This document shows, piece after piece, positions 699 to 12,031 of a stretch of 64,000 nt of DNA. Positions within the stretch are counted from its first letter, which is position 1; the number at the start of each line of letters is the position of its first letter. The notes beneath the pieces were generated by a model. The model worked only from the letters and a program-made list of their open reading frames with translations. It was not told the DNA's origin and made no database searches. Both the position numbers and the translations under genes were made by a program. Source of the DNA: a virus (Duplodnaviria; Caudoviricetes); IMG/VR virus record IMGVR_UViG_2862830631_000005, positions 14,672 to 78,671 of that record. One strand, written 5' to 3'.

Positions 699-704
699 CT
701 GTTG

Positions 705-775
705 CAGTTCGTAGGGGACTCGAACCCCTACCTACAGATTGAGAATCTGGGATGCTGCCTTTACACCAACGAACC
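705..775 (-). tRNA. tRNA-Glu(CTC)
   Basis: GGTTCGT/ACGAACT acceptor, CAGA-TT-CTC-AA-TCTG anticodon arm, TTCGAGT T-loop. Confidence 0.85.
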
Positions 776-1114
776 ATTGCTGACGACCCACTGGCCGTCA
801 TCACGAACCTCCGTCTTAAGGTTCACCGGCCACATGTCGCGCTCAACTCGGGCCTTCAGAAGCGTCTCCTGGCCACACTGACGCTTCACCCATGTGCGGA
901 ACGTTGAGGTTTGCGCCATGCGCTTGAACGCCAACCGCTTGTTCTGCAACTGACTGCGCTCATCGCGAGCCTCACCAACGGCGCCGGAAGCCCTGTGAGT
1001 GACTCGGACACCGGTTTCCCGCTTGTTCTGATTCTGCCCACCCTTGCCGCCGGCACGAAATGTGTCGACCTGGCAGTCATCAAGGGTGACCGAGAATGCT
1101 AGTTCCATACTCAC
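761..1114 (-). CDS. peptide chain release factor-like / ArfB-type peptidyl-tRNA hydrolase
   Basis: FRAGGKGGQNQNK GGQ motif, GVRVTH, ERSQLQNK; 117 aa with no codon-recognition domains. Confidence 0.9.
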   Translation of the reverse strand: MSMELAFSVTLDDCQVDTFRAGGKGGQNQNKRETGVRVTHRASGAVGEARDERSQLQNKRLAFKRMAQTSTFRTWVKRQCGQETLLKARVERDMWPVNLKTEVRDDGQWVVSNGSLV

Positions 1115-1189
1115 GTCCCGACGACGGGATTTGAACCCGTGTATCCACCTCGACAGGGTGGCGTCCTGGGCCGCTAGACGACACCGGGA
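1115..1189 (-). tRNA. tRNA-Asp(GTC)
   Basis: CCACC-CT-GTC-GA-GGTGG anticodon arm; TTCAAAT T-loop. Confidence 0.9.
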
Positions 1190-1265
1190 TTGTTGGACTT
1201 GACGCGTACCTCACGGGTCAACTTTCTGGGAATCAAACCCTGGAGCTGCTTGACCAAAACTCCCG

Positions 1266-1339
1266 CATTCCGAGCGGGATTCGAACCCGCACTCTCCTGA
1301 GTGAAAATCAGGTGGGATGACCAATTACCCTATCGGAAC
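1266..1339 (-). tRNA. tRNA-Glu(TTC)
   Basis: CCTGA-TT-TTC-AC-TCAGG; TTCGAAT T-loop. Confidence 0.88.
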
Positions 1340-1345
1340 ACAATG

Positions 1346-1413
1346 TGGAGTACCGGGGAATCGGACCCCGCCTCTGAGTTTGCAAAACTCGGAGTCTCAC
1401 CAGACAGCACCCC
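1346..1413 (-). tRNA. atypical 68-nt tRNA-Ala(TGC)
   Basis: GGGGTGC/GTACTCC acceptor with G3:U70; mini D arm GTCT-GGTG-AGAC; TT-TGC-AA loop; TCCGATT T-loop. Confidence 0.7.
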
Positions 1414-1414
1414 G

Positions 1415-1531
1415 TTAAGCCGCCTTCCGGCGATGTGGACGACCGTGCCCCTTGTTGCGTGCTCCGTATGTTGGAGTCAACGCATGATGATTGGGGCACA
1501 GCACTCGCAGATTCGCCCGCGAGTTGTTGGT
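1415..1531 (-). pseudogene. HNH endonuclease C-terminal relic
   Basis: Translates TNNSRANLRVLCPNHHALTPTYGARNKGHGRPHRRKAA*; in-frame TAG a few codons upstream and no start codon. Confidence 0.75.
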
Positions 1532-1570
1532 GTAGGTCTCTTGACGGACCTATTGTGCAAAAAAGAGCTG

Positions 1571-1642
1571 AGCCCCTACGACGATTCGAACGCCGCACGC
1601 CGATTTACAAGATCGGAGCTTTTCCTACTAAGCTATAAGGGC
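1571..1642 (-). tRNA. tRNA-Thr(TGT)
   Basis: CCGAT-CT-TGT-AA-ATCGG; canonical T arm. Confidence 0.88.
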
Positions 1643-1643
1643 C

Positions 1644-1714
1644 TGGTAGCCGGTCAAGGAATCAAACCCTGCTTAGTTGGATGTAAGCCAACCTTCGTCT
1701 CAGACTAACCAGCC
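1644..1714 (-). tRNA. atypical tRNA-Val(TAC) with minimal D arm
   Basis: GGCTGGT/ACCGGCT-A-CCA; GGTTGG-CT-TAC-AT-CCAACT 6-bp anticodon stem; TTTGATT T-loop. Confidence 0.72.
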
Positions 1715-1715
1715 A

Positions 1716-1793
1716 TGGAGCATCCGCACGGAATCGAACCGAAACTTTCAGGGTGGAAGCCTGACGTGCTAGACCGTTAAACACTACGGACGC
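1716..1793 (-). tRNA. tRNA-Gly(TCC)
   Basis: TCAGG-CT-TCC-AC-CCTGA; ends in TCCA. Confidence 0.88.
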
Positions 1794-1813
1794 ATAGGTA
1801 TTCAATTATGTTG

Positions 1814-1880
1814 CGCGACAGGAGGGAGTCGAACCCCCATCCGACCGCTTAGGAGGCGGCTGGCCGTCCAGTGCTGCCGC
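1814..1880 (-). tRNA. atypical 67-nt tRNA-Arg(CCT)
   Basis: GCGGCAG/CTGTCGC acceptor; D arm with 4-nt loop; GCCGC-CT-CCT-AA-GCGGT; TTCGACT T-loop. Confidence 0.72.
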
Positions 1881-2043
1881 ATCGGACCTTGCTAATGATC
1901 TCCAAGTCCTCATACTCGCGGGACTCTTCGTAATCCCACTCGCGCCGCCACAGACGATCCTCAGCGGCCCGCTGACGCAACGCCAACATGTCACCGCCAC
2001 AACACCCTCGGCAACACGTCCTACGTCGCAGCATGGATGACAC
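1849..2043 (-). CDS. small hypothetical protein (Cys-rich N-terminus)
   Basis: GGAGGT RBS before GTG 2043 / ATG 2034; the ORF runs into tRNA-Arg(CCT). Confidence 0.5.
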   Translation of the reverse strand: MSSMLRRRTCCRGCCGGDMLALRQRAAEDRLWRREWDYEESREYEDLEIISKVRCGSTGRPAAS

Positions 2044-2056
2044 AGCTACCTCCAAG

Positions 2057-2131
2057 TGGTAGGGACACCGGGTACTGACCCCAGGATGCCGTCTTATCAG
2101 AACGGAGTGATAACCATTTCACTATGTCCCA
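2057..2131 (-). tRNA. tRNA-Ile(GAT)
   Basis: CCGTT-CT-GAT-AA-GACGG; ACCA end; non-canonical T-loop GTCAGTA. Confidence 0.8.
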
Positions 2132-2132
2132 G

Positions 2133-2206
2133 TAGGCCCAGAAGGAATTGAACCCTCGTCCCCGGATTAAGAGTCCGGTGCTATTCCCAACTTCAGCTAT
2201 AGGCCC
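2133..2206 (-). tRNA. tRNA-Lys(CTT)
   Basis: CCGGA-CT-CTT-AA-TCCGG. Confidence 0.9.
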
Positions 2207-2310
2207 ATATCCGGCAGTAACGGGGCCGGGGCCGAGTAGTCTTCAGCCACCCGATGGCCTACTACTACCTCTTTCGTCGTCGCGCCGGGTCAGGGCGGTC
2301 GGGATTTGCG

Positions 2311-2384
2311 TACTCGACGCGAGAGTCGAACTCGCAAGCACCTGAGTTTGAATCAGGCGGCTTTGCCGGTTTGCCTAGTCGAGC
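2311..2384 (-). tRNA. tRNA-Leu(CAA), short variable loop
   Basis: CCTGA-TT-CAA-AC-TCAGG; 5-nt variable loop. Confidence 0.85.
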
Positions 2385-2385
2385 A

Positions 2386-2859
2386 TTACGCCGCAGCTTT
2401 CCACGGCTTGTTTGTGTCGCACTGAGAATGACAGTTGGGACAGAGAAACCTCAGGTTCTCGGCGCGGTTATCGAGAGGGTTGCCGTCTATATGATCAATC
2501 TCCAGAACGATTGGAAGCCCCATCCATGAATCATCCAACCCGCATAGCTCACACACCGCTGGACGACCGATCTCGCTCAGTGCGCGGCGAAGGCGTTTGA
2601 CATCTTCACGGTTACTACCCTCAGGGCGAACCACAAGGATCTCAGTGGCCGCCTTTCGGCGGTTTGACGTCCCTCGACCGGCAGTCGTGTTTCGAAAGTG
2701 GCTTGTATCCAACCCCATGCGTACCACACGATTACGCATATGGAAGTGGCTACCGCCCGCCACCTTGATACCTAGTCTGCGGAGCACGTCTGACATCGAC
2801 GTGCAACTAGCGACCGCATCCGCCACCTGGGCGTCGGTATATGTTCTTTGTCTCCCCAT
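2386..2859 (-). CDS. HNH endonuclease
   Basis: CELCG...LEIDHIDGNPLDNRAENLRFLCPNCHSQ; N-terminal HTH-like region. Confidence 0.92.
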   Translation of the reverse strand: MGRQRTYTDAQVADAVASCTSMSDVLRRLGIKVAGGSHFHMRNRVVRMGLDTSHFRNTTAGRGTSNRRKAATEILVVRPEGSNREDVKRLRRALSEIGRPAVCELCGLDDSWMGLPIVLEIDHIDGNPLDNRAENLRFLCPNCHSQCDTNKPWKAAA

Positions 2860-2863
2860 TGCG

Positions 2864-2936
2864 TACCGAGGGCGGGGGTCGAACCCGCATACACCTGATT
2901 CTAAGTCAGGCGGCTCGCCAGATGGCCTACCTCGGC
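2864..2936 (-). tRNA. tRNA-Leu(TAG), short variable loop
   Basis: CCTGA-CT-TAG-AA-TCAGG. Confidence 0.85.
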
Positions 2937-2981
2937 ATATCGGGGAAGCCCCCGTAGTTCGGGATCCCCCCTGTGACCTAT

Positions 2982-3056
2982 TGGAACCGGGAGTCGGATC
3001 TGCACCGACGTAGGTCGGCTTTGCAGGCCGCCGCTTAACTACTCAGCCATCCCGGC
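2982..3056 (-). tRNA. tRNA-Cys(GCA)
   Basis: CGGC-CT-GCA-AA-GCCG; U73-CCA; T-loop TGCAGAT. Confidence 0.85.
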
Positions 3057-3311
3057 TTGTTCCCACCCCGGCCAATCATGGATGGTGGGAATGCGGCCCT
3101 GAGATCCATTCAGAGCCACGTTCACCTGCAGGGCGTAGGAAAGCCATGGACGAAGGTCATCCACGTCCTCTCCGTTGCCCTCAGCCTCATCTCTGGCAGC
3201 CTGCAGGATCTCTGCTATCTGCTGTCGACGGGCCACGACGGCCGGATGGCTGTTGAACCATTCGATCGCCGGCTGGAGAAACTTGGGATCTTCCTTCAGC
3301 AAGCCAGCCAT
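3039..3311 (-). CDS. hypothetical protein
   Basis: MAGLLKEDPKF... with upstream AGGGGA; the stop codon lies in the tRNA-Cys D-loop. Confidence 0.65.
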   Translation of the reverse strand: MAGLLKEDPKFLQPAIEWFNSHPAVVARRQQIAEILQAARDEAEGNGEDVDDLRPWLSYALQVNVALNGSQGRIPTIHDWPGWEQAGMAE

Positions 3312-3324
3312 CGTTTCCCCTAAG

Positions 3325-3398
3325 TGGTCAGACCGGACGGGCACGATCCGTCCCCTGCACAGTCACAGTGTGCAATGCTTCCGCTACACCACGGCCTT
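3325..3398 (-). tRNA. tRNA-His(GTG), atypical acceptor end
   Basis: GCACA-CT-GTG-AC-TGTGC; ACCA end; T-loop ATCGTGC. Confidence 0.78.
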
Positions 3399-3401
3399 GT
3401 G

Positions 3402-3474
3402 CGCCCCTGAAAGGATTCGAACCTCCACAGGCATGGCTTCGTAGGCCATCGCTCTTCCGTTGAGCTACAGAGGC
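3402..3474 (-). tRNA. tRNA-Arg(ACG)
   Basis: ATGGC-CT-ACG-AA-GCCAT. Confidence 0.9.
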
Positions 3475-3563
3475 AGTTGAGCTTTAACCATCTGCTTTAT
3501 TAGATTGCAGTTAGCGCAAAGGGTTTGATACCCTTCCGGCCAACCGCGATTCCTTAGCTGCTG
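3465..3563 (-). pseudogene. HNH endonuclease C-terminal relic
   Basis: Translates QQLRNRGWPEGYQTLCANCNLIKQMVKAQLPL*, an HNH-type P-x-GYQ-x-LC-x-NCN-x-x-K ending. Confidence 0.65.
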
Positions 3564-3792
3564 GCCGCTCCTGGCTAGCAGGAGCAAGCAAGCACAACGC
3601 TCGATGCAACCAAGTAGCAGCCGCTAAGAGCCCGCCATCCGGGTCGTCCACCGCATAACACGGCAGATCACCAAACTTCTCACGGTACATCTCGATAGCA
3701 GTGGCATGCCCGCCCTCATAAGACCAACCGATGAACGCGCACGCACGCTCAGCCTCAGCCGTAGAAGGCAAGGGCCCCCAGAAGTCAGGCAC
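3511..3792 (-). CDS. hypothetical protein
   Basis: GTG start overlapping the upstream ORF end; the C-terminus runs over the HNH relic. Confidence 0.5.
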   Translation of the reverse strand: MPDFWGPLPSTAEAERACAFIGWSYEGGHATAIEMYREKFGDLPCYAVDDPDGGLLAAATWLHRALCLLAPASQERPAAKESRLAGRVSNPLR

Positions 3793-4039
3793 GGCGCTGC
3801 CACCCATCCATTTCCATCTGACTGCGATGCGAACGGTGGTCGTCATCGTCATAACCAACCGAAACGCAAATCAGGTACCAACCCGGCTTAACCCAAAGCT
3901 CAAGGTTCTCGCCGTGAACATTTAACCCACTATCCTCGGCGACATACAGCAGGGCGTCAATCGACCGCTTAACAGCGTCGGGCGTCATAGCGCTATGACA
4001 GGCGTGATAAAAGAAATGCTTCTCAGGCACACTCGGCAT
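3785..4039 (-). CDS. hypothetical protein
   Basis: GGGGAG RBS then ATG (MPSVPEKHFFYH...). Confidence 0.55.
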   Translation of the reverse strand: MPSVPEKHFFYHACHSAMTPDAVKRSIDALLYVAEDSGLNVHGENLELWVKPGWYLICVSVGYDDDDHRSHRSQMEMDGWQRRA

Positions 4040-4086
4040 GAAACAACTCCCCCGCATACTCGGCGACCATCTTCTTTGATTCCATC

Positions 4087-4160
4087 TGGTTGCGCAGCTG
4101 GGATTCGAACCCAGAGCCTCGGCTTATGAGACCGAGATGTTCCCCTTACACTACCGCGCA
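4087..4160 (-). tRNA. tRNA-Met(CAT)
   Basis: TCGGT-CT-CAT-AA-GCCGA; ACCA end. Confidence 0.88.
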
Positions 4161-4216
4161 ATATCCGGATTGGTTCGCCTCTCACCGGCATCGAGGAGTG
4201 GTTTCCACTTCATACG

Positions 4217-4291
4217 TCGGAACGCTTGGATTCGAACCAAGGGCCTCCCGGGTTTCAACCGGGCGCTCTCACCTCACTGAGCTACGATCCG
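4217..4291 (-). tRNA. tRNA-Phe(GAA)
   Basis: CCCGG-TT-GAA-AC-CCGGG. Confidence 0.9.
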
Positions 4292-4369
4292 AGGAGTCCC
4301 ACCCATTCATGCCAGCCCCTCTGGCAACCTGTATTCACTCTTAGTGGCCACCAGGCGGGTGGGGGTAAG

Positions 4370-4496
4370 CGGAGGGCTGTGGGCACGATCCACACGGGTT
4401 GTCTACCGCGCACCCCTTAGCAGGGGGCCCCAGCTCCCTGGCTGGTTAGCTCTCCAAAGTTCCCGGTCGCTCTGCCAGTTGAGACGTATACCCCTG
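4370..4496 (-). ncRNA. tRNA-like RNA with expanded anticodon arm
   Basis: D-arm-like CTC-AACTGGCA-GAG, ACCG/CGGT stem enclosing two hairpins, T arm TGTGG-ATCGTGC-CCACA. Confidence 0.45.
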
Positions 4497-4555
4497 ACGC
4501 ACCAACAGTCCTTCGCGCGAACTAGGTGTTGGCTCCCACCGTGCACGGCAGGCGA

Positions 4556-4716
4556 CGAGGGCAGGTGGATTCGAACCACCAACCACCAGTTGCGAAGAGC
4601 GGAGGTCTTGATCCCCAAGCAGCATCACCTGCTACCCGGTATTCGACACCGGTCGGGGCACTCGCCCCTGCTTCACTCTCCAGATGCCGGTCGAGTTGCT
4701 TTTACCCTGCGCCTCC
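4556..4716 (-). ncRNA. outer tRNA-like shell enclosing tRNA-Ser(CGA)
   Basis: GGAGGCG/TGCCCTC acceptor, GGGT/ACTC D stem, ACCGG/CTGGT anticodon stem, perfect GGTGG-TTCGAAT-CCACC T arm. Confidence 0.55.
4593..4681 (-). tRNA. atypical tRNA-Ser(CGA)
   Basis: GGAGAGT/GCTCTTC-G acceptor; CCGGT-GT-CGA-AT-ACCGG; long variable arm AGCAG/CTGCT; divergent D and T arms. Confidence 0.72.
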
Positions 4717-4738
4717 CCGGCTTGTGGCGCAGCATGTG

Positions 4739-4812
4739 TGGAGTCACCGAGGCTTGAACTCGGCTCTGCTGGACTGCGAATCCGGCGTTTTACCTTGTTA
4801 AACTACAACCCC
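4739..4812 (-). tRNA. tRNA-Ala(CGC)
   Basis: GGGGTTG/TGACTCC with G3:U70; TT-CGC-AG loop. Confidence 0.85.
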
Positions 4813-5039
4813 ATTGTGCGGTTTCGGGTGTCGCGATTCACCCTACCGAGAGGTCCGCTATCTCGGATCCGTGGTTGGATAACACAGCCAGCGGCATCGG
4901 ACTGCGACCCCGTAAATTAACGTCACCAGGGATCAGGGCGGGTAGTTATCCGATCTACCAACGGCTAGTTCGGTCCGGCCCAGTTTTAACCCGCTCGGGC
5001 CGGGGGTGGGAAGCAGTTTGAATTGATGCTCAACAATCG

Positions 5040-5111
5040 CTGGAAACCCTGGATTCGAACCAAGAATGACGGGTTCAGATCCCGTAGTGTTGCCGGTTAC
5101 ACCAGTCTCCA
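5040..5111 (-). tRNA. tRNA-Gln(CTG)
   Basis: ACGGG-AT-CTG-AA-CCCGT; U1-A72 and G73. Confidence 0.87.
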
Positions 5112-5393
5112 ATGCTGGAAAGGCATTTCGGTCGGCCCACCTCTCCACTGGCCGGTGGGCAGTCGATTCGGGGTCGAGCCCCTCCCTCGTCTGTGTTCCC
5201 CACTAGGACTGGCCTTGCGAGCAGGGGCCCTCATGTTGGTGTCGCAAGCCACGAACGGGTGCCCCGTCAGTCCCAAGATTGGAGACGCTTAGTTCAGTAG
5301 GCCCAGCGTCACTGCCTACACGATCCCAGGCTGGGGACGGTCCTACTTTCCCTCACCGTGCCCACGGGTGGGAGTGGTACCTCTCGTGTGTTG

Positions 5394-5470
5394 TCTCGCC
5401 GTGAGGAGTCGAACCTCCACACCCGAAGGAAGGGCTTTACAGGCCCCGTTGCTCACCTATGCGCGACGAG
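5394..5470 (-). tRNA. tRNA-Tyr(GTA), reduced D arm
   Basis: CTCGTCG/CGGCGAG-A; GGGC-CT-GTA-AA-GCCC; CC-TTCG-GG variable arm. Confidence 0.8.
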
Positions 5471-5763
5471 ATTGGAGGTGCGGCCTACAGACAAATACCG
5501 CACTACCACGCCATTTCACCGGATTATCGTTTCCCGGCTTGTCCCCCAGATCCCTCCAGGAGGCGCGTACGCCTGGTCCTTGTGAACCACTGTTCATGTC
5601 GAAAGCTACTCTGCGGCGTTCCCTTCGCCGTTGGGATGGCCGTCCCATGGCTGCAGTACTGACCTACAAACAGGATCCGCCTTGCGGGCTCGTCCTGCCC
5701 CGATTCTGCTCCACAGTCGGGGATTAAGGCGCTTTAACTCTTCGACAGGGAAAGTCTTTTGCT

Positions 5764-5839
5764 TGGATAACATCACAGGAATTGAACCTGCGACCTTCTG
5801 TTCTCAATACAGATGCTCTACCAATTGAGCTAGATGTTG
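5764..5839 (-). tRNA. tRNA with TGA anticodon (nominally Ser) on a class I body
   Basis: Canonical D and T arms; TCTGT-AT-TGA-GA-ACAGA; 5-nt variable loop; C1:A72 mismatch; U73-CCA. Confidence 0.75.
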
Positions 5840-6242
5840 TGACCGGAGACGTGCTTCCCCATGAAGGTCCGTAACCTTTTGAGCTACAGAATGCTTCACG
5901 CCTCTCGCGCTTCAGGCTGGCGACCTGTTTCGCGCTCTCCCTCAACCGCATGCGAGCCGTCGCCCGTCGCGAGATCGGTCATGGAACCCGCCTTCGCCTG
6001 CCAGGGCTCTGACTCAGTTCCTTCCGCACCCACACCAGCCTTAGTCGATAACACTTTCGGGCCTACGTTAGGTCATGGTGTCCTCAGCACGTTGCCGTTG
6101 GACCATGTGTACCTCGGTGGCGCACCGCCCCTTCGAGGACGGTGTCGGGTTGTGGATTGCATGGATTGCCCTCACGGGTGGCGAGCTGTCACACTCACCT
6201 TTCAGTGCCTTACGGCACCTTATCGGCCATGCCCGAAATCTT

Positions 6243-6346
6243 GATGGGGCCTGGATTCTAACCAGGATCTCCAGGGAATGCCACGTCCGGACGTGGGGCC
6301 TGGGCTCTACCGGGGATCAAGCCGGCTGATCTTGAGCTACACCCTC
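6243..6346 (-). ncRNA. tRNA-like RNA lacking an anticodon loop
   Basis: TA-GCTC...GGTA-GAGC D arm with an inserted hairpin; CCAGG/CCTGG stem capped by CCACGT-CCGG-ACGTGG; T arm CCTGG-TTAGAAT-CCAGG. Confidence 0.6.
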
Positions 6347-6347
6347 G

Positions 6348-6420
6348 CTGGTCCGCCAGGATTCGAACCTGGAACTTCCTGGTTAACAGCCAAGCGTGTT
6401 GCCGGTTACACCACGAACCA
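6348..6420 (-). tRNA. tRNA-Asn(GTT)
   Basis: CTTGG-CT-GTT-AA-CCAGG. Confidence 0.88.
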
Positions 6421-6576
6421 ATGATTGCCGCCAAACCAGGTGGGGGGAGCTTTTGACCGCACGATGGCGGGGTGGCTGTTATGTCACCCGGTTTGGTAAG
6501 TCTTTCCCACCAGTGTGACGACAGGTGGGCGTGCCGGTCCTAAACGGACACACTCAGTTGACACTTTTTCATTGCG

Positions 6577-6648
6577 TCGGGAAGCACAGACTCGAACTGC
6601 GTACGCCCGCATCCGAAGCGGCCATGTTTACCTTTACACCACATCCCG
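6577..6648 (-). tRNA. tRNA-Pro(CGG)
   Basis: CCGC-TT-CGG-AT-GCGG; C1-G72, A73. Confidence 0.87.
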
Positions 6649-6722
6649 ATTGGAAGCATGGCGGATGGAGTGGGCTCTGTACCATCTCTTACCTATGGCC
6701 ATTCCCGACCATGCTTCACGAG

Positions 6723-7160
6723 TGGAGCTGGCGGGAGTCGAACCCGCGTCTTACGTTCTTCGTACTCAGTCTTCTACGTGCGTAGTCCAGACAGGTGTAA
6801 TCCCAGCCAGCTACTGGACATACGGCTGCGGATTTGCTTCGGATTTACCCCCGAGTGGGCTGCAATTTTAGCCTACGGGTGCGCGGGCGCTACGGTCTGC
6901 CAACCATTCCTGCGGTCCCCGTATTAGCGACGCTGGATTGGTAGACGGAACGGGTAAACCGCTCTACCCCAACGGACTTCAGCTAGGCTGCGACGAGAAA
7001 CTCAGCCTCGATGTCCTCAACGGAGAAATCGAGCTCAGCTTCCCAGGCAGCGAAGTCAGCATCAGTATCGACTGCGCTTAATTTGTTTTGCACTGTTACG
7101 GGCGTTGCATCCCGGCACGCTTCCCTGGACTCTGTTCGCAATCGAAACCAGAACAGCCCC
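6723..7160 (-). ncRNA. ssrA: tmRNA
   Basis: 5' GGGGCTGTTCTGGTTTCGA; 3' GGGTTCGACTCCCGCCAGCTCCA with G3:U70; tag frame 7075..6983 AVDTDADFAAWEAELDFSVEDIEAEFLVAA*. Confidence 0.95.
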
Positions 7161-7205
7161 ATGAAACTTACTTGATATCCACTATTTAGTTCTCAAAGTA
7201 CTGAG

Positions 7206-7276
7206 CAGGGTCGGAGGGATTCGAACCCCCATAAGCGGCTTTGGAGACCACGGTCCTGCCGTTGGACGACAACCCT
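7206..7276 (-). tRNA. tRNA-Trp(CCA)
   Basis: GTGGT-CT-CCA-AA-GCCGC. Confidence 0.9.
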
Positions 7277-7812: not shown

Positions 7813-8154
7813 TCAGTCCCGCCAGCGTCGCGACGTGACGTGAGCTGCCTTTTTCTGGGATCCCGCACCGAGACGCTGGTTGCAGACGAGATGCATCGGT
7901 TCCAGATTCTCCACGCTGTACTGCAGAGGGTCATCCCAGGCGAGATCCTTCACCGGGATGATGTGATTCACGGTGGGGGACATTGGATCTGGATACTTGA
8001 GGGATAGGTCGATCAGCTGGCCGCACGCAGGATACTTTCCGTTTCCGCGGAAAGCGCAGATCTGATTCGTACGCAATACGCGATTCTTGGCCTGCTGGAA
8101 TCGAACCCCCGCACGGCCACGTGGACGCGGCCCGTTTTTCGAATGGGTTGGCAT
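7813..8154 (-). CDS. HNH endonuclease-like protein (packaging-associated type)
   Basis: C...CGQLID...PTVNHIIP...NLEPMHLVCN; ends in SRRW. Confidence 0.8.
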   Translation of the reverse strand: MPTHSKNGPRPRGRAGVRFQQAKNRVLRTNQICAFRGNGKYPACGQLIDLSLKYPDPMSPTVNHIIPVKDLAWDDPLQYSVENLEPMHLVCNQRLGAGSQKKAAHVTSRRWRD

Positions 8155-8174
8155 AGAGGGTTCCTCCCTCTATT

Positions 8175-8945
8175 TTACCCCAAATCCCAGATGACGAAGT
8201 TGTCGCTGAACTGGTGGGTGCCATCCTCGGCGAGCCCGAACACCCTGGTAGCCGTGCCATCTGGGTACTGAAGAAGGCTGTTATACCGCTTGTGGTAGTG
8301 GCCGTGAATCAATATCCTTGGCCGTACCCCGTCGCAGATCTTCCGCAACACTGCACGGTGCGCGTTCGATGCGATGATCTCAGACCGGGGCCAGCCGCTG
8401 GTAATCGAGTCGACATCAGGGTCCGCTGCGATTCCGGGGATGTCGACACCGAGGGGGCAGTCGTGCGACACAACCACGTGGACCGGGCCGGCCGAGATTG
8501 CACGATCCACCTCGGCCTCGGTGATGTGCTCCTCATCCCACCACGACACTCCAGGCTTGCGCAGCTGCCGGTCAATGGAGTGGGCCCCACCCATTGCCAT
8601 CCACATGTAGCCACCCAGCTCCCAGCGATAACCGCGGGGAAGGTGCTTGATCCTCGGGTAGGCGGGATCCGACCAAGGTTCACCGCCGGAGGCAGCGACC
8701 CGCTCAACGATCTCCGGGTGGTACTCGTGGTTGCCGTCGACCCACCACAGCTCCATATCGTGACGGGACAGAGCAGAGTTCAGGGTGGACAGGTAGGCTT
8801 CTCGCGGCAACCCTGGGCCCCACCATCCGAAATCGCCGGCGTGAATGATCAGCTCAACACCTCGGTAGGCGAGTGACTCGACTATGTTGGACGCCCACGT
8901 CGAGTTTCCGTGCCAGTCGCCCACGACGGCAACCTTGTTGGTCAT
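8175..8945 (-). CDS. calcineurin-like metallophosphoesterase
   Basis: GDWHG, GDFG, DGNHE, SHDCP, HGHYH motifs. Confidence 0.92.
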   Translation of the reverse strand: MTNKVAVVGDWHGNSTWASNIVESLAYRGVELIIHAGDFGWWGPGLPREAYLSTLNSALSRHDMELWWVDGNHEYHPEIVERVAASGGEPWSDPAYPRIKHLPRGYRWELGGYMWMAMGGAHSIDRQLRKPGVSWWDEEHITEAEVDRAISAGPVHVVVSHDCPLGVDIPGIAADPDVDSITSGWPRSEIIASNAHRAVLRKICDGVRPRILIHGHYHKRYNSLLQYPDGTATRVFGLAEDGTHQFSDNFVIWDLG

Positions 8946-8997
8946 AGAACCATGTACCCTTCGATTCGTGAGAGGCGGATGACGGATATATCCCTAC

Positions 8998-9504
8998 TCA
9001 CGCCGCCAGCTCCGGATAGAACGTCCTCATGAACCCAGCAGATGACTTGTCGAGATCCTCCCAGTCGGTGAGGTTCCGCTCATAGACCGACTGGGCATCG
9101 TTCGCCTCGAAACCGGGGCGCTTCACCTGATGAATCCACTCCAGGTTCGAAGCCGCAGTGTTGGTGACATCCCCATCCTTGAAGCGGATCGTGGAGGCTT
9201 GCCGGCCGAACGGCGGCTCACCATGGAATGCCAGAGCCACCAGGAATGCCACGCGCTGCGCACGCGGAACAGCGGGCTTCCCAACCCGTGGGATCTGCAC
9301 GTTCACATACATGTGCGCAATGTTCGTGTTGTGCTTCCGCAGATACGGCTTCAGGATCTGCTCAGAGAACCTGCGGATGTACGGATTCTCGGAGTGTGGG
9401 CTGTGAACGACGAGCTCATAGGGCAGCCGGCGAACCTCGCCATGCCTGGACGCTTCGAAACGGTGAGGGATGCCGGGAATCTTCCGCCATTCCGTCAGTT
9501 CCAC
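8998..9504 (-). CDS. NUMOD4/HNH-like protein, catalytic His apparently lost
   Basis: WRKIPG...EASRHGEVR; RVAFLVALAF; IRFKDGDVTNTAASNLEW. Confidence 0.7.
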   Translation of the reverse strand: MELTEWRKIPGIPHRFEASRHGEVRRLPYELVVHSPHSENPYIRRFSEQILKPYLRKHNTNIAHMYVNVQIPRVGKPAVPRAQRVAFLVALAFHGEPPFGRQASTIRFKDGDVTNTAASNLEWIHQVKRPGFEANDAQSVYERNLTDWEDLDKSSAGFMRTFYPELAA

Positions 9505-9992
9505 GAAGCTACCTCGGCGGCGAACGCCGGGTTGCACAGCACCGCGGGGGAGCGCACATTGCGGAGATGGGCGACGATGTCTGCGCCGCTCATACCGCCC
9601 TGCATGTAGAGGGCCCTGGCTGTCACCAGGGACGACCGATTCAGTCCAGCCTGGCAATGCACCAGAACAGGCCCATCCTTGCGGCACACGTTGATCCAGG
9701 TGGCAATGGCGTCGATCTGCTCGAACCCCTGGTAGACGGAGTCGTACATTTCGACATAGAGCTCTGAGCTGATCTCCCGCGCCATCTCGTAGCGCTCCCA
9801 CGGGTACACCGACACAACGTGATCGATGTCCTCAGGGAGCATCAGCCCGTCAGCGCATCCGCCCTGCCAGAGGTTGTCGCCGATGTAGGAGATGTACGGC
9901 ACATCGAACGGCGTCAGGCCATGCGTCGCAACACCGGAGATGCGCTGAACGCGCGGGTCGTACTCGATATCGATTGCTGTTGGGTCAGCCAT
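9495..9992 (-). CDS. dual-specificity/tyrosine phosphatase family protein
   Basis: VLVHCQAGLNRS (HCx5R) motif. Confidence 0.9.
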   Translation of the reverse strand: MADPTAIDIEYDPRVQRISGVATHGLTPFDVPYISYIGDNLWQGGCADGLMLPEDIDHVVSVYPWERYEMAREISSELYVEMYDSVYQGFEQIDAIATWINVCRKDGPVLVHCQAGLNRSSLVTARALYMQGGMSGADIVAHLRNVRSPAVLCNPAFAAEVASWN

Positions 9993-10208
9993 CTACCGAC
10001 CTTCCTCTTCCCAGTAGGCTTCCATTACCTTCGTCACGACCTTGAACCAGTCGGGGCGGCCGTTCAGCTCTCCGTCTATCGCATCGAAGTAACTGTCTTC
10101 GGTTGCACTGGCTTCGATCTCGTCATCGAGATACTGGCGGTCAAGCTCGGCGATGAGTACATCCTCGAGCTGCTTGATGAGGACCGTGTCCTCGGCGCGG
10201 ATCGGCAT
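9993..10208 (-). CDS. hypothetical protein
   Basis: Acidic 71-aa ORF, translationally coupled. Confidence 0.65.
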   Translation of the reverse strand: MPIRAEDTVLIKQLEDVLIAELDRQYLDDEIEASATEDSYFDAIDGELNGRPDWFKVVTKVMEAYWEEEGR

Positions 10209-10453
10209 CAGGACTCCGTTGTGTGTCGAGCGATGGCGGCGTTGGCCCAGAACATCGCCTCTTCGAGCTTGGTTATTGCCAGAGACTTCTCACGGCCCGG
10301 TGGGACAATCCGGTCCAGTTCCAATGCGGTTATGTACAGCTCCGATCGCACACTTTCGTGGGCAACGCGCCTGTCTCGCGTCTCAGCAGCGTGAAACTTG
10401 AACCGGTGCTTGAGGTCGCTCGCCGTTGCTGGCGTTGTGTAACTCATCCGCAC
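10208..10453 (-). CDS. Acb2/Tad1-like hairpin protein (putative nucleotide-signal sponge)
   Basis: RFKFH...PPGREKSLAITKLEEAMFWANAAIAR. Confidence 0.7.
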   Translation of the reverse strand: MRMSYTTPATASDLKHRFKFHAAETRDRRVAHESVRSELYITALELDRIVPPGREKSLAITKLEEAMFWANAAIARHTTES

Positions 10454-10458
10454 CCCTC

Positions 10459-11205
10459 CTAGACGACTTCAGACGACTGGACCGACTTGGTGAACTGACC
10501 CCACTTGCCGCAGTCGTTGCAGTGGATCCTCTGGTAGAGGCGTGTGGCAGTCGGGCGGGTGCCCTTCAGGCGGTAGTTGCCGCTACCGCAGTTCGGGCAC
10601 ACCGGCATGCTTCCCTCGGGCTTGAAGAGATTCAGGTTGATGCCCTTCACCCATGGGAGCATGAGGTGGTACAGCTCCTCGGTGAGCTCCACGTCGCGAC
10701 GGTTGTACTTCTCCATCGCCTTGCGGGCCCGAGTGACCACTCCACGCTTCTCGGAGCGCAGGTCAGACCACATCCCGGGTGGAGTCTTGTCCTTGCCGTC
10801 CAAGCCGAGAGTGTCTGCGATGAACGCCATCCGGTTGTAGAGGAACTGAAACTCGCGCTTCAGATTCACCATCAGGTCGATGTCGACATGACTCGCGGGT
10901 GGGAGGATCCCGTATTCGAGGAAGTGCGACCTGAGGTGCTTGATGTCGAACTTCGCCGAGTTCCAGCCGATCACATAGTCGGCTTCATCGAGGACGGCGT
11001 GCGCCTTGCGGATCATTCCCTCATGGGTGTCATCCCATTCGGACGCGAAGTGAATGGCGTCGTCTCCCAGCCACTTCCACGCCAGGCAGATGGTCCTCGG
11101 TGGTTCGCGGAACTGCTCGGGCCTGATGAACTTCGGGGAGAAGTCCCACACTTCAGCCAACCCGGCCTGGCGCTCAATGTCGAGCGTGACGATCCGTGCA
11201 CTCAA
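10459..11205 (-). CDS. RNase H-like/DnaQ-like 3'-5' exonuclease with C-terminal Zn ribbon
   Basis: TLDIE, GWNSAKFD, YNRRDV; CPNCG...CNDCG. Confidence 0.85.
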   Translation of the reverse strand: MSARIVTLDIERQAGLAEVWDFSPKFIRPEQFREPPRTICLAWKWLGDDAIHFASEWDDTHEGMIRKAHAVLDEADYVIGWNSAKFDIKHLRSHFLEYGILPPASHVDIDLMVNLKREFQFLYNRMAFIADTLGLDGKDKTPPGMWSDLRSEKRGVVTRARKAMEKYNRRDVELTEELYHLMLPWVKGINLNLFKPEGSMPVCPNCGSGNYRLKGTRPTATRLYQRIHCNDCGKWGQFTKSVQSSEVV

Positions 11206-11234
11206 TGCGGTCTCCTAATGTATTGGGACACAGT

Positions 11235-11672
11235 CTAGTTAGGCCGGATGAGTCCGTGAAACAGGTCCGGGAAGCGCCCTTCTTCTGGGCTCCCCTTCGA
11301 GCGAGCGGATGGCCGCGAGTCATACTCAGGCTTGTTGACCATGAACCACGCCAGAGCGAAGCAATGCCACGCAGCGGAGACAACATGCTTCGAACCGGTC
11401 TCCGGATCGATGTCCTCGCCGGCCCAGAACGCGTTCAGGTGACGCTGCACGGCTGCATAGGAGTACTTCCAGTCGTACCCGCGCCGCCAGTTGTCATCCT
11501 CATACTTCTCGGCACCCCTGCCGTAGTGCTCGGCGAGCTCCCACAGTACGGTGGGCGGGATGAGGTCGAAACGTGCCAGCTTCGAACCCTTCTCGCCGCC
11601 CGACTCGCTGACGGTGCGAACCTCGCCAGGAACGGAAGTTGGTGGCGTAACAGGATGCTGCCCCTCAGTCAC
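11235..11672 (-). CDS. dATP/dGTP diphosphohydrolase-like protein (DUF5664)
   Basis: KLARFDLIP...GAEKYEDDNWRRG...DPETGSKHVVSAAWH. Confidence 0.85.
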   Translation of the reverse strand: MTEGQHPVTPPTSVPGEVRTVSESGGEKGSKLARFDLIPPTVLWELAEHYGRGAEKYEDDNWRRGYDWKYSYAAVQRHLNAFWAGEDIDPETGSKHVVSAAWHCFALAWFMVNKPEYDSRPSARSKGSPEEGRFPDLFHGLIRPN

Positions 11673-12031
11673 GCAACCGTCTTCCACACCGTGACGGTCT
11701 CCGTGGCTGGGTACACCTCGTCGGTTGGGCCCTCGTAGTAGCCGCCGTCGAACGACGCATACCAGCCGTCGCGCCGAAAGTAGCGGGTCTCGCCCTTCTC
11801 GCCGAGAATCTTCACGACGGCCCAATACTGGTCCCCCTGGCCCTCGCCGCCGAACTGCTCCGAGAGCTCAGCAATTCCGATATCTGGGATGTCGACACAC
11901 TTCTTGCCCCATTCCAGCTCCTCAAGGAAGTCGTCCCACCCATCACAGCAGCCGTACCGGTCGGGGATGTCATTGTCGTCCCACGAGCCCGACGCGATCG
12001 AGGCATCCAGATCTTCGACTGTGTAACTCAT
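11669..12031 (-). CDS. hypothetical protein, tandem paralog 4
   Basis: MSYTVEDLD...IPDIG...GGEGQG...DGWYASFDG...GPTDEV. Confidence 0.8.
   Translation of the reverse strand: MSYTVEDLDASIASGSWDDNDIPDRYGCCDGWDDFLEELEWGKKCVDIPDIGIAELSEQFGGEGQGDQYWAVVKILGEKGETRYFRRDGWYASFDGGYYEGPTDEVYPATETVTVWKTVA

Follow-up and report, generated by a model that had tools for sequence, protein, structure and literature searches.

A tRNA-derived element without an anticodon bordering a prophage GOLLD RNA on its 5′ side: pseudo-tRNA or possible tRNA-like processing mark

GOLLD is among the largest non-coding RNAs of bacteria and phages, and in the 64,000-nt stretch of phage DNA analysed here (the window) it is encoded within a tRNA array. 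At its 5′ edge lies a sequence that a first-pass annotation had described as a tRNA mimic lacking an anticodon and carrying extra hairpins in the D loop and at the anticodon position. The locus thus raises the question of what this element derives from and whether it serves the large RNA that follows it.

The window occurs once in a 6.23-Mb genome of 210 contigs, where it is part of contig C178. Its minus-strand array comprises 21 tRNAs called by ARAGORN between 7276 and 704, all encoded on the strand of the element. The order tRNA-Trp, tmRNA, tRNA-Pro, tRNA-Asn, GOLLD and further tRNAs is common to cluster-M mycobacteriophages (Bongo, PegLeg, Reindeer, Rey, Estes, Aziz, MrMagoo and Nanosmite were compared) and to prophages of M. 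abscessus, and this matching gene order indicates that the array belongs to a related prophage. Just upstream of the array are genes for an HNH endonuclease and for phosphoesterases/phosphatases; an association of tRNA clusters, GOLLD and HNH genes is reported for mycobacteria in PMC6582537 and PMC9569102. The features surrounding the element are the following:

7160-6720, minus strand: tmRNA (Rfam)
6348..6420, minus strand: tRNA-Asn(GTT), directly upstream of the element (ARAGORN; Rfam, 62.8 bits)
6242..6346, minus strand: tRNA-derived anticodon-less element, a full cloverleaf scaffold with two insertions (Rfam tRNA; ARAGORN after removal of the inserts)
5905..6241, minus strand: GOLLD 5′ domain, outside the Rfam model, conserved from 6239 downward (alignment and BLAST)
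5476..5904, minus strand: conserved 3′ domain of GOLLD, Rfam RF02032 (162.1 bits, with the gathering score at 150; model positions 1-416)
5839-5767, minus strand: tRNA-Ser(TGA) inside the GOLLD linker (ARAGORN and Rfam)
5393..5471, minus strand: class-II tRNA-Tyr(GTA)-like gene, 4-5 nt past the GOLLD 3′ end (tRNA-Sec model, 27 bits; relaxed ARAGORN)

The tRNA-Tyr(GTA)-like gene (5471-5393) was called by ARAGORN at a relaxed threshold and not at the default. A single base, C6347, separates the discriminator of tRNA-Asn from the element, and such tight tandem tRNA pairs are common in the array (0-5 nt at 2131/2133, 3398/3401 and 1339/1345).

A tRNA scaffold with two insertions

Inspection of the sequence recovered all motifs that had been listed for the proposed tRNA mimic at 6346-6242 on the minus strand, and the discriminator lies one base past the start coordinate originally assigned. 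The parts of the element, all on the minus strand, are:

6346-6340: acceptor 5′ strand, GAGGGTG
6339-6338: U8 and A9
6337-6334 with 6307-6304: D stem, GCTC with GAGC
6315..6331: D-loop insert between positions 15 and 16, a 17-nt near-palindrome, GATCAGCCGGCTTGATC
6303-6299 with 6275-6271: anticodon stem, CCAGG with CCTGG
6281..6296: insert replacing the anticodon loop, a 16-nt perfect palindrome with a 6-bp stem and a CCGG loop, CCACGTCCGGACGTGG
6270-6267: variable loop, AGAT
6266-6250: T arm, CCTGG-TTAGAAT-CCAGG, with A at position 56 in the T loop
6249-6243: acceptor 3′ strand, CCCCATC
6242: discriminator A

The element aligned to the Rfam tRNA model (RF00005) over model positions 1-71 with 24.6 bits, a score below the curated gathering cut-off of 29 bits, and the alignment placed one insertion in each of two loops, 24 nt long in the D loop and 22 nt long in the anticodon loop. 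The E-value was 0.02 when 1.3 kb were searched and 0.0019 when the search was confined to 123 nt; the element was not among the Rfam matches from 8-kb or 64-kb searches, and default ARAGORN did not call a tRNA on it. Watson-Crick pairs are kept at 19 of the 21 stem positions of the Rfam alignment (D stem 4/4, anticodon stem 5/5, T stem 5/5, acceptor stem 5/7). While the acceptor had initially been described as bulged, it contains no bulge but two mismatches, G3.A70 and U6.C67. Its end carries G1-C72 and A73 followed by the trailer AGA instead of CCA, whereas C74 follows the discriminator in all 21 true tRNAs of the array, six of which encode CCA.

When both inserts were deleted in silico with varied boundaries, ARAGORN called a tRNA in 418 of 2058 variants, and exact excision of both palindromes gave a 72-nt tRNA with the anticodon CAT. 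The same deletion scheme produced no tRNA from 60 dinucleotide shuffles or from seven other segments of the array. Given these controls, the resemblance of the element to a tRNA exceeds chance. The element is hence a tRNA scaffold with two insertions and derives from a former tRNA gene. The best match to this scaffold among 287 tRNAs called by ARAGORN in the window and the compared loci, a tRNA-Phe, is identical at only 51 of 72 positions, so that none of them can be named as its ancestor.

Recovery of a callable 72-nt tRNA upon removal of both palindromes is also what a working tRNA with two short spliced introns would show, a reading to which we give virtually no credence. Neither insert is surrounded by a bulge-helix-bulge, their geometry being that of a plain hairpin, and the genome lacks the splicing endonuclease PF01974, for which the positive control matched four archaea; an archaeal-type intron-bearing tRNA was rejected on these grounds. 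Moreover, the loop remaining after excision would have C33 and U37, A56 would persist and C74 would still be missing. Two further readings were discarded. ARAGORN at an 80% threshold reports a 74-nt 'tRNA-Gly(ccc)' at 6346-6273, which is implausible as it takes the palindrome for a T arm, and on either strand only short overlapping open reading frames of 48-84 aa, located within RNA genes, could be considered as protein-coding.

The anticodon-loop region, 23 nt long, folds into a hairpin of 6 bp capped by CCGG; the 7-nt loop, U33 and the anticodon are all absent. The two palindromic insertions have thus abolished decoding capacity, with loss of the anticodon loop. The state of the elbow is mixed. 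Bases G18, G19, T54, T55 and A58 are present, and the contacts U8-A14, A15-U48, G18-U55 and T54-A58 are possible. However, A replaces C56 in the T loop, so the G19-C56 pair is lost, and in the stablest fold of the D loop G18 and G19 are engaged in other pairs. The term 'elbow-preserving', used when the element was first described, accordingly fits the retained bases but not the G19-C56 contact.

Both palindromes have CCGG at their centre and share no further half-site. The genome of 6.23 Mb contains 540 perfect palindromes of at least 16 nt, corresponding to an expectation of about 0.009 per 105 nt, and each of the two palindromes of the element occurs in it once. A repeated palindromic element of the REP or MITE type was rejected, as there is one copy of each and the fuzzy matches with up to three substitutions are unrelated. 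The hairpin of the anticodon insert appears in both the MFE and the centroid fold. The GATCA/TGATC hairpin proposed for the D loop is present in sequence, but it is outcompeted by a stabler GCCGG/CCGGU pairing, seen in the MFE fold, that occupies G18 and G19. It had further been argued that perfectly paired insertions speak against simple decay. This description holds for the anticodon insert, whereas the D-loop insert is only near-perfect, and the argument is weak since each palindrome could stem from one insertion event and both are single-copy. The fold energy of the element does not differ notably from that of shuffled sequences (z = -0.32; 73 of 200 shuffles fold equally well). Folding of the element inside 526 nt of context was uninformative, as even the bona fide tRNA-Asn misfolds there.

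The 5′ border of GOLLD in related phages

The GOLLD 5′ domain was matched by BLAST in cluster-M phages and M. abscessus prophages. A scan of genome contigs for the GOLLD 5′ motif returned one spurious Cyclobacterium match only. In an alignment of seven sequences, conservation restarts at column 187, corresponding to position 6239 of the window and thus 3 nt past the discriminator of the element, and not a single column within the element is invariant among these relatives. The element lies outside the conserved GOLLD structure: RF02032 covers only 5904-5476, and GOLLD of the Bongo type does without such a module.

We compared what occupies the same slot in relatives, using the distance between the discriminator and the conserved GGCATGG as a ruler. 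This distance is 8 nt in the window. In the cluster-M1 phages Bongo and PegLeg a normal tRNA-Asn adjoins GOLLD, 7 nt from GGCATGG, and two congeneric genomes have a tRNA with a TTT anticodon loop (G767) and an 84-nt tRNA (G664) in the slot, each at 6 nt. Slot and strand are hence alike in all these loci, with a spacing of 6-8 nt overall. The canonical slot tRNAs of the relatives possess anticodon loops and score 40-54 bits, whereas the element carries two insertions, A56 and acceptor mismatches and reaches its 24.6 bits; unlike them, it also has a separate tRNA-Asn before it. In the BLAST alignment its T arm is identical at 16 of 17 bases to that of the GOLLD-adjoining tRNA-Asn of Bongo.

In Rey, Estes, MrMagoo, Aziz and Reindeer the slot is filled by a circularly permuted, anticodon-less tRNA-like module, in which an anticodon-stem strand, the variable loop, the T arm, a capped acceptor hairpin, the D arm and the other anticodon-stem strand follow one another. 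These modules match the tRNA-like part of YrlA (RF02553) with 43.6 bits for Rey, 31.9 for Reindeer, 30.9 for Aziz and 27 for Estes and MrMagoo. Across the four distinct sequences, both partners vary in 8 of 21 pairs and 97.6% of cells are paired, which none of 500 shuffles reached. A model built on the permuted module (R1) could not be used for counting modules because it also matches ordinary tandem-tRNA junctions; in the window it gave only 15.4 bits, across the junction of tRNA-Asn and the element. Nanosmite carries in the slot a closed hairpin domain unlike a tRNA, the M. abscessus prophages carry a longer segment containing two tRNA-Ser-like genes of class II, and a genome (L035) and a metagenome contig (L037) have only promoter-like sequence and no tRNA there. 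The content of the slot thus turns over fast among relatives, and the Nanosmite hairpin and the tRNA-free loci L035 and L037 indicate that GOLLD does not depend on a tRNA-shaped element. On the 3′ side, a tRNA or tRNA-like element begins within 4-12 nt of GOLLD in 13 of the 14 loci with a full-length Rfam GOLLD match, the exception being L035.

The loci in which GOLLD directly follows promoter-like, non-tRNA sequence bring up the idea that the element acts at the level of DNA. The decayed T loop (TTCGAAT to TTAGAAT) would then be a -10 box (TANNNT) for GOLLD, and the 16-bp palindrome over the -35 region an operator:

6284-6255, minus strand: promoter-like match with GTGGCA (-35), an 18-nt spacer and TAGAAT (-10-like, 6260-6255) (promoter scan)

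The scan found two sites in the region compared with 0.6 +/- 0.8 in shuffles, and the sole deviation from the T-loop consensus is what creates the TA. We nevertheless consider a promoter highly improbable. Nine of 12 consensus matches make it weak, and the start expected about 7 nt downstream falls into a run of C (6249-6246), while mycobacterial transcription usually starts at purines. In addition, CCGG is the only half-site common to the two palindromes, and no repressor was identified.

Searches for homologues of the element recovered none. In phage records (megablast, 29 records; blastn, 34 records) nothing beyond the T arm or tRNA-Asn was matched, and PLSDB plasmids gave one unrelated Bacillus match of tRNA size. 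Nine of 400 other genomes of the family had a match, all confined to query positions 2-86, the tRNA-Asn part; three of 399 other genomes of the genus had one, aligned only to GOLLD. Exact-pattern scans recovered one unrelated tRNA from viral contigs and nothing from metagenome contigs, and all eight public sequencing runs listed showed a share of only 0.04. These collections possibly omit the records nearest to the genome of the window, and close relatives of the element may exist.

The same results bear on the earlier proposal that the mimic titrates anticodon nucleases or other tRNA-directed toxins and defence enzymes. Its position within a phage tRNA array and its partly kept tRNA shape would suit a decoy. 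Anticodon nucleases, however, read the anticodon loop, which is absent here, and the G19-C56 pair is lost as well; without the C74/CCA context, toxins directed at the acceptor end are also unlikely to target the element, and none of the relatives conserves it. The decoy claim is thus unsupported, with anticodon loop, C56 and C74 missing and no homologue in the collections searched, and we regard it as scarcely credible.

Possible readings: processing mark, relic or appendage

It is established from minihelix substrates that RNase P and RNase Z need a helix of acceptor stem and T arm, the pair G1-C72, A73 and a trailer other than CCA. The element keeps these features while having lost the anticodon loop, C56 and C74. 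We therefore favour, with moderate confidence, the reading that it is a non-decoding, tRNA-derived punctuation element at which RNase P and RNase Z would process GOLLD. The whole array would be transcribed as one precursor, in which the element would be recognised via its acceptor/T-arm helix with G1-C72, A73 and no CCA thereafter. RNase P would cut at G6346 and in doing so also trim tRNA-Asn to ...G73-C74, and the 5′ end of GOLLD would result from a cut of the RNase Z type after A6242. The tRNA-Tyr-like gene located 4-5 nt past the GOLLD 3′ end would have the same role on the other side.

Such a function as an RNase P/Z mark had already been suggested in the first-pass annotation. The suggestion fits the context, namely a GOLLD with 162.1 bits, a gap of 3 nt and canonical tRNAs in the slot of relatives; the cleavage itself is what we infer from this setting. 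Support comes from the equivalence of the slot to that of real tRNAs, the derivation from a tRNA, the tRNA folds on the 3′ side and stems that are intact except for two mismatches. Since tRNA folds tightly bracket GOLLD, and GOLLD can also follow a plain promoter, the flanking folds are most simply understood as processing marks and not as parts of GOLLD. Several points count against this reading. The upstream tRNA-Asn alone could supply the cleavage, the element then being a passenger, and A56, the two acceptor mismatches and the sequestration of G18/G19 could each weaken recognition by RNase P or RNase Z. The missing homologues, the fast turnover of the slot and the ordinary fold energy (z = -0.32) likewise weigh against it.

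The main rival is an inert relic: a dead tRNA paralogue caught between tRNA-Asn and GOLLD that suffered two insertion events and itself does nothing. The 5′ end of GOLLD would then arise from tRNA-Asn processing or from other nucleases, while the element would be degraded or carried along. We consider this possible. The element is unique to one prophage among all collections searched, C56 is gone, two acceptor pairs are mismatched and C74, found in 21 of 21 true tRNAs, is missing; the slot content differs among relatives, the fold is ordinary (z = -0.32), and PMC6582537 describes pseudo-tRNAs in clusters of this kind. What speaks against a relic is that 19 of 21 stem pairs are still Watson-Crick, that both inserts sit in loops where the fold tolerates them (the variable pocket of the D loop and the anticodon loop), and that its 3′ end is still set off from GOLLD by the 6-8 nt typical of the real tRNAs, although none of these points is decisive if the pseudogene is young.

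A different role would follow if the element stayed uncut as a 5′ appendage, that is, a tRNA-shaped domain of GOLLD displayed on its multimeric cage, where it could bind factors that recognise tRNAs or link protomers by means of self-complementary hairpin loops. GOLLD forms nanocages of 10 to 14 protomers, which are partly held by kissing loops and in which covalently linked tRNAs are possible, as stated in PMC12286853 and PMC12990946. These properties would suit an appendage, as would the permuted module of five cluster-M phages, which cannot be freed by acceptor-end processing and which shows compensatory changes (8 of 21 pairs; 0 of 500 shuffles), and the D-loop insert, which can present GCCGGC in a 7-nt loop. 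In the window, however, the element is not conserved, loop-loop pairing would need a larger loop than the CCGG tetraloop and the competing D-loop fold buries the palindrome, while Bongo-type GOLLD manages without such a module. We thus hold a retained appendage to be distinctly unlikely.

Considered across mycobacteriophages, anticodon-less tRNA-shaped modules could in principle constitute a recurrent and selected 5′ appendage of GOLLD that occurs in at least two topologies, stays attached to the cage and displays 10-14 tRNA elbows. The two topologies may be one closed at the anticodon end, as in the window, and a permuted one closed at the acceptor end, as in Rey, Estes, MrMagoo, Aziz and Reindeer. 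While we rate this generalisation as unlikely, it would imply that the elbows of the cage, here together with self-complementary hairpin loops, recruit tRNA-binding machinery or bridge protomers. An element that stays attached would in any case bear on what GOLLD cages carry or bind.

Returning to the punctuation reading, the loci suggest a rule by which GOLLD would be cut from the transcript of a tRNA array by tRNA-processing enzymes, with a tRNA or tRNA-like fold on each side. If this rule is true, the element would be a natural tRNA kept solely as a cutting mark and a prokaryotic counterpart of the mascRNA/MALAT1 arrangement. For annotation, the locus is a warning that several tRNA-derived genes in such arrays escape tRNA finders at default settings.

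Relation to known tRNA-like elements

Whether pseudo-tRNA or tRNA-like processing mark, the element at the 5′ edge of GOLLD is of a known kind in a new form. A comparable setting is that of mycobacterial GOLLD tRNA clusters, in which, as here, non-canonical tRNA genes occur within horizontally acquired clusters of tRNA, GOLLD and HNH genes (PMC6582537 and PMC12990946). For a similar tRNA cluster of another mycobacterium, PMC6582537 reports that GOLLD is expressed and has tRNA genes on both sides. The pseudo-tRNAs or embedded tRNAs described in PMC6582537 and PMC12990946 sit in the GOLLD linker, whereas the element, with its palindromic inserts, borders GOLLD on the 5′ side. Our literature search, which covered the sources in part, found no earlier description of a 5′-boundary element with palindromic inserts.

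The tRNA-like domain of YrlA, a bacterial Y RNA, is likewise an anticodon-less tRNA mimic that keeps the D and T arms (PMC4201824). YrlA (RF02553) has a permuted topology, with a Ro-binding stem closing the domain and a Ro60 gene as neighbour, in contrast to the normal topology of the element, and the region of the element matched it with 17.1 bits, far from the gathering score of 69, in an alignment spanning the junction of tRNA-Asn and the element. An identity as Y RNA was rejected, as the genome contains neither a TROVE/Ro60 gene nor a YrlA.

In the polycistronic transcripts of mitochondria and in the tRNA-miRNA units of murine gammaherpesvirus, tRNA or tRNA-like folds act as mere RNase P/Z marks between other RNAs. 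These are different biological systems from that of our element, whose corresponding role is putative. A parallel in architecture is provided by mascRNA and the MEN-beta tRNA-like RNA (MALAT1, NEAT1; RF01684), which, like the element, are cloverleaves without a decoding anticodon loop at the border of a long non-coding RNA. There, cuts by RNase P and RNase Z define the end of the long RNA. RF01684 did not match 6242-6346 at E-values up to 10, its single match being one of 16.7 bits on tRNA-Asn. The mascRNA and MEN-beta elements are eukaryotic, lie at the 3′ end of their lncRNA and have experimentally demonstrated processing, whereas the element described here belongs to a prophage, lies on the 5′ side of GOLLD and is known from sequence.

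tRNA genes and neighboring sequences of the window array

Directly downstream of GOLLD, the large non-coding RNA of the array, the window harbors a further tRNA-like gene, which follows the GOLLD 3′ end after only 4-5 nt.

Window 5393-5471, minus strand: class-II tRNA-Tyr(GTA)-like gene

This gene is matched by the Rfam tRNA-Sec model with 27 bits and is recovered by ARAGORN at a 90% threshold, while ARAGORN does not call it under default settings. Rfam moreover reveals two window tRNAs that are absent from the ARAGORN list (2060-2131 and 1814-1880). Each of the 21 Rfam-supported array tRNAs (window 704-7276, minus strand) carries a C immediately 3′ of the discriminator, and a full CCA is encoded by six of them. 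This pattern may reflect a 3′-maturation rule shared across the array tRNAs.

Within the element, the anticodon-less tRNA-derived fold with a 16-nt palindrome in place of the anticodon loop, a promoter-like match is apparent (window 6255-6284, minus strand). The altered T loop provides its -10 hexamer, TAGAAT, whereas its -35 overlaps the palindrome. A second perfect 16-nt palindrome, GTCATAGCGCTATGAC, resides in an array spacer at window 3984-3999.

Protein-coding genes are located directly upstream of the array.

Window 7813-11825, minus strand: genes directly upstream of the array

They encode an HNH endonuclease, a calcineurin-like phosphoesterase, a dual-specificity phosphatase, an RNase H-fold protein and a dATP/dGTP diphosphohydrolase-like protein, as well as a NUMOD4-motif protein whose match is weak and under the Pfam cut-off and whose ORF overlaps the next one.

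The region preceding GOLLD in M. abscessus prophages and PegLeg

In M. abscessus prophages, the interval from tRNA-Gln to GOLLD holds two unannotated class-II tRNA-Ser-like genes, one with anticodon CGA and one with GCT, both being ARAGORN calls at the 90% threshold only.

prophi86-1 (locus L001), 1349-1434 and 1513-1596: tRNA-Ser-like genes; corresponding region in loci L004, L006 and L019-L025

This stretch contains additional hairpin-rich insertions in some relatives. In the PegLeg record, a second tRNA-Asn is annotated at L003 1228-1299, overlapping the GOLLD 5′ domain at its start; since no Rfam tRNA match is obtained there at E up to 1, this is probably a mis-annotation. Small 'hypothetical protein' genes are annotated within GOLLD in several records.

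A permuted tRNA-like module in cluster-M relatives

In five relatives, tRNA-Asn and the GOLLD 5′ domain are separated by a circularly permuted, anticodon-less tRNA-like module that lacks annotation in their records.

Rey (L028), 1096-1182: permuted module
Estes (L029), 1195-1279: permuted module
MrMagoo (L031), 1100-1184: permuted module
Aziz (L030), 1042-1126: permuted module
Reindeer (L005), 1123-1205: permuted module

Compensatory changes are found in 8 of its 21 pairs among four distinct sequences, and its tRNA-like part scores 27-43.6 bits with the Rfam YrlA model.

In Xylella phage Usme, and likewise in 10 Xanthomonas phages, an unannotated region shares 82.6% identity with the Rey module over 67 nt and reaches 26-54 bits with R1, the model of the permuted module, which also matches ordinary junctions between tandem tRNAs.

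Xylella phage Usme (L038), 597-678, 112-189 and 347-424: Rey-module-like region

Instead of permuted modules, these matches may represent a tRNA array that lacks annotation, or junctions of tandem tRNAs.
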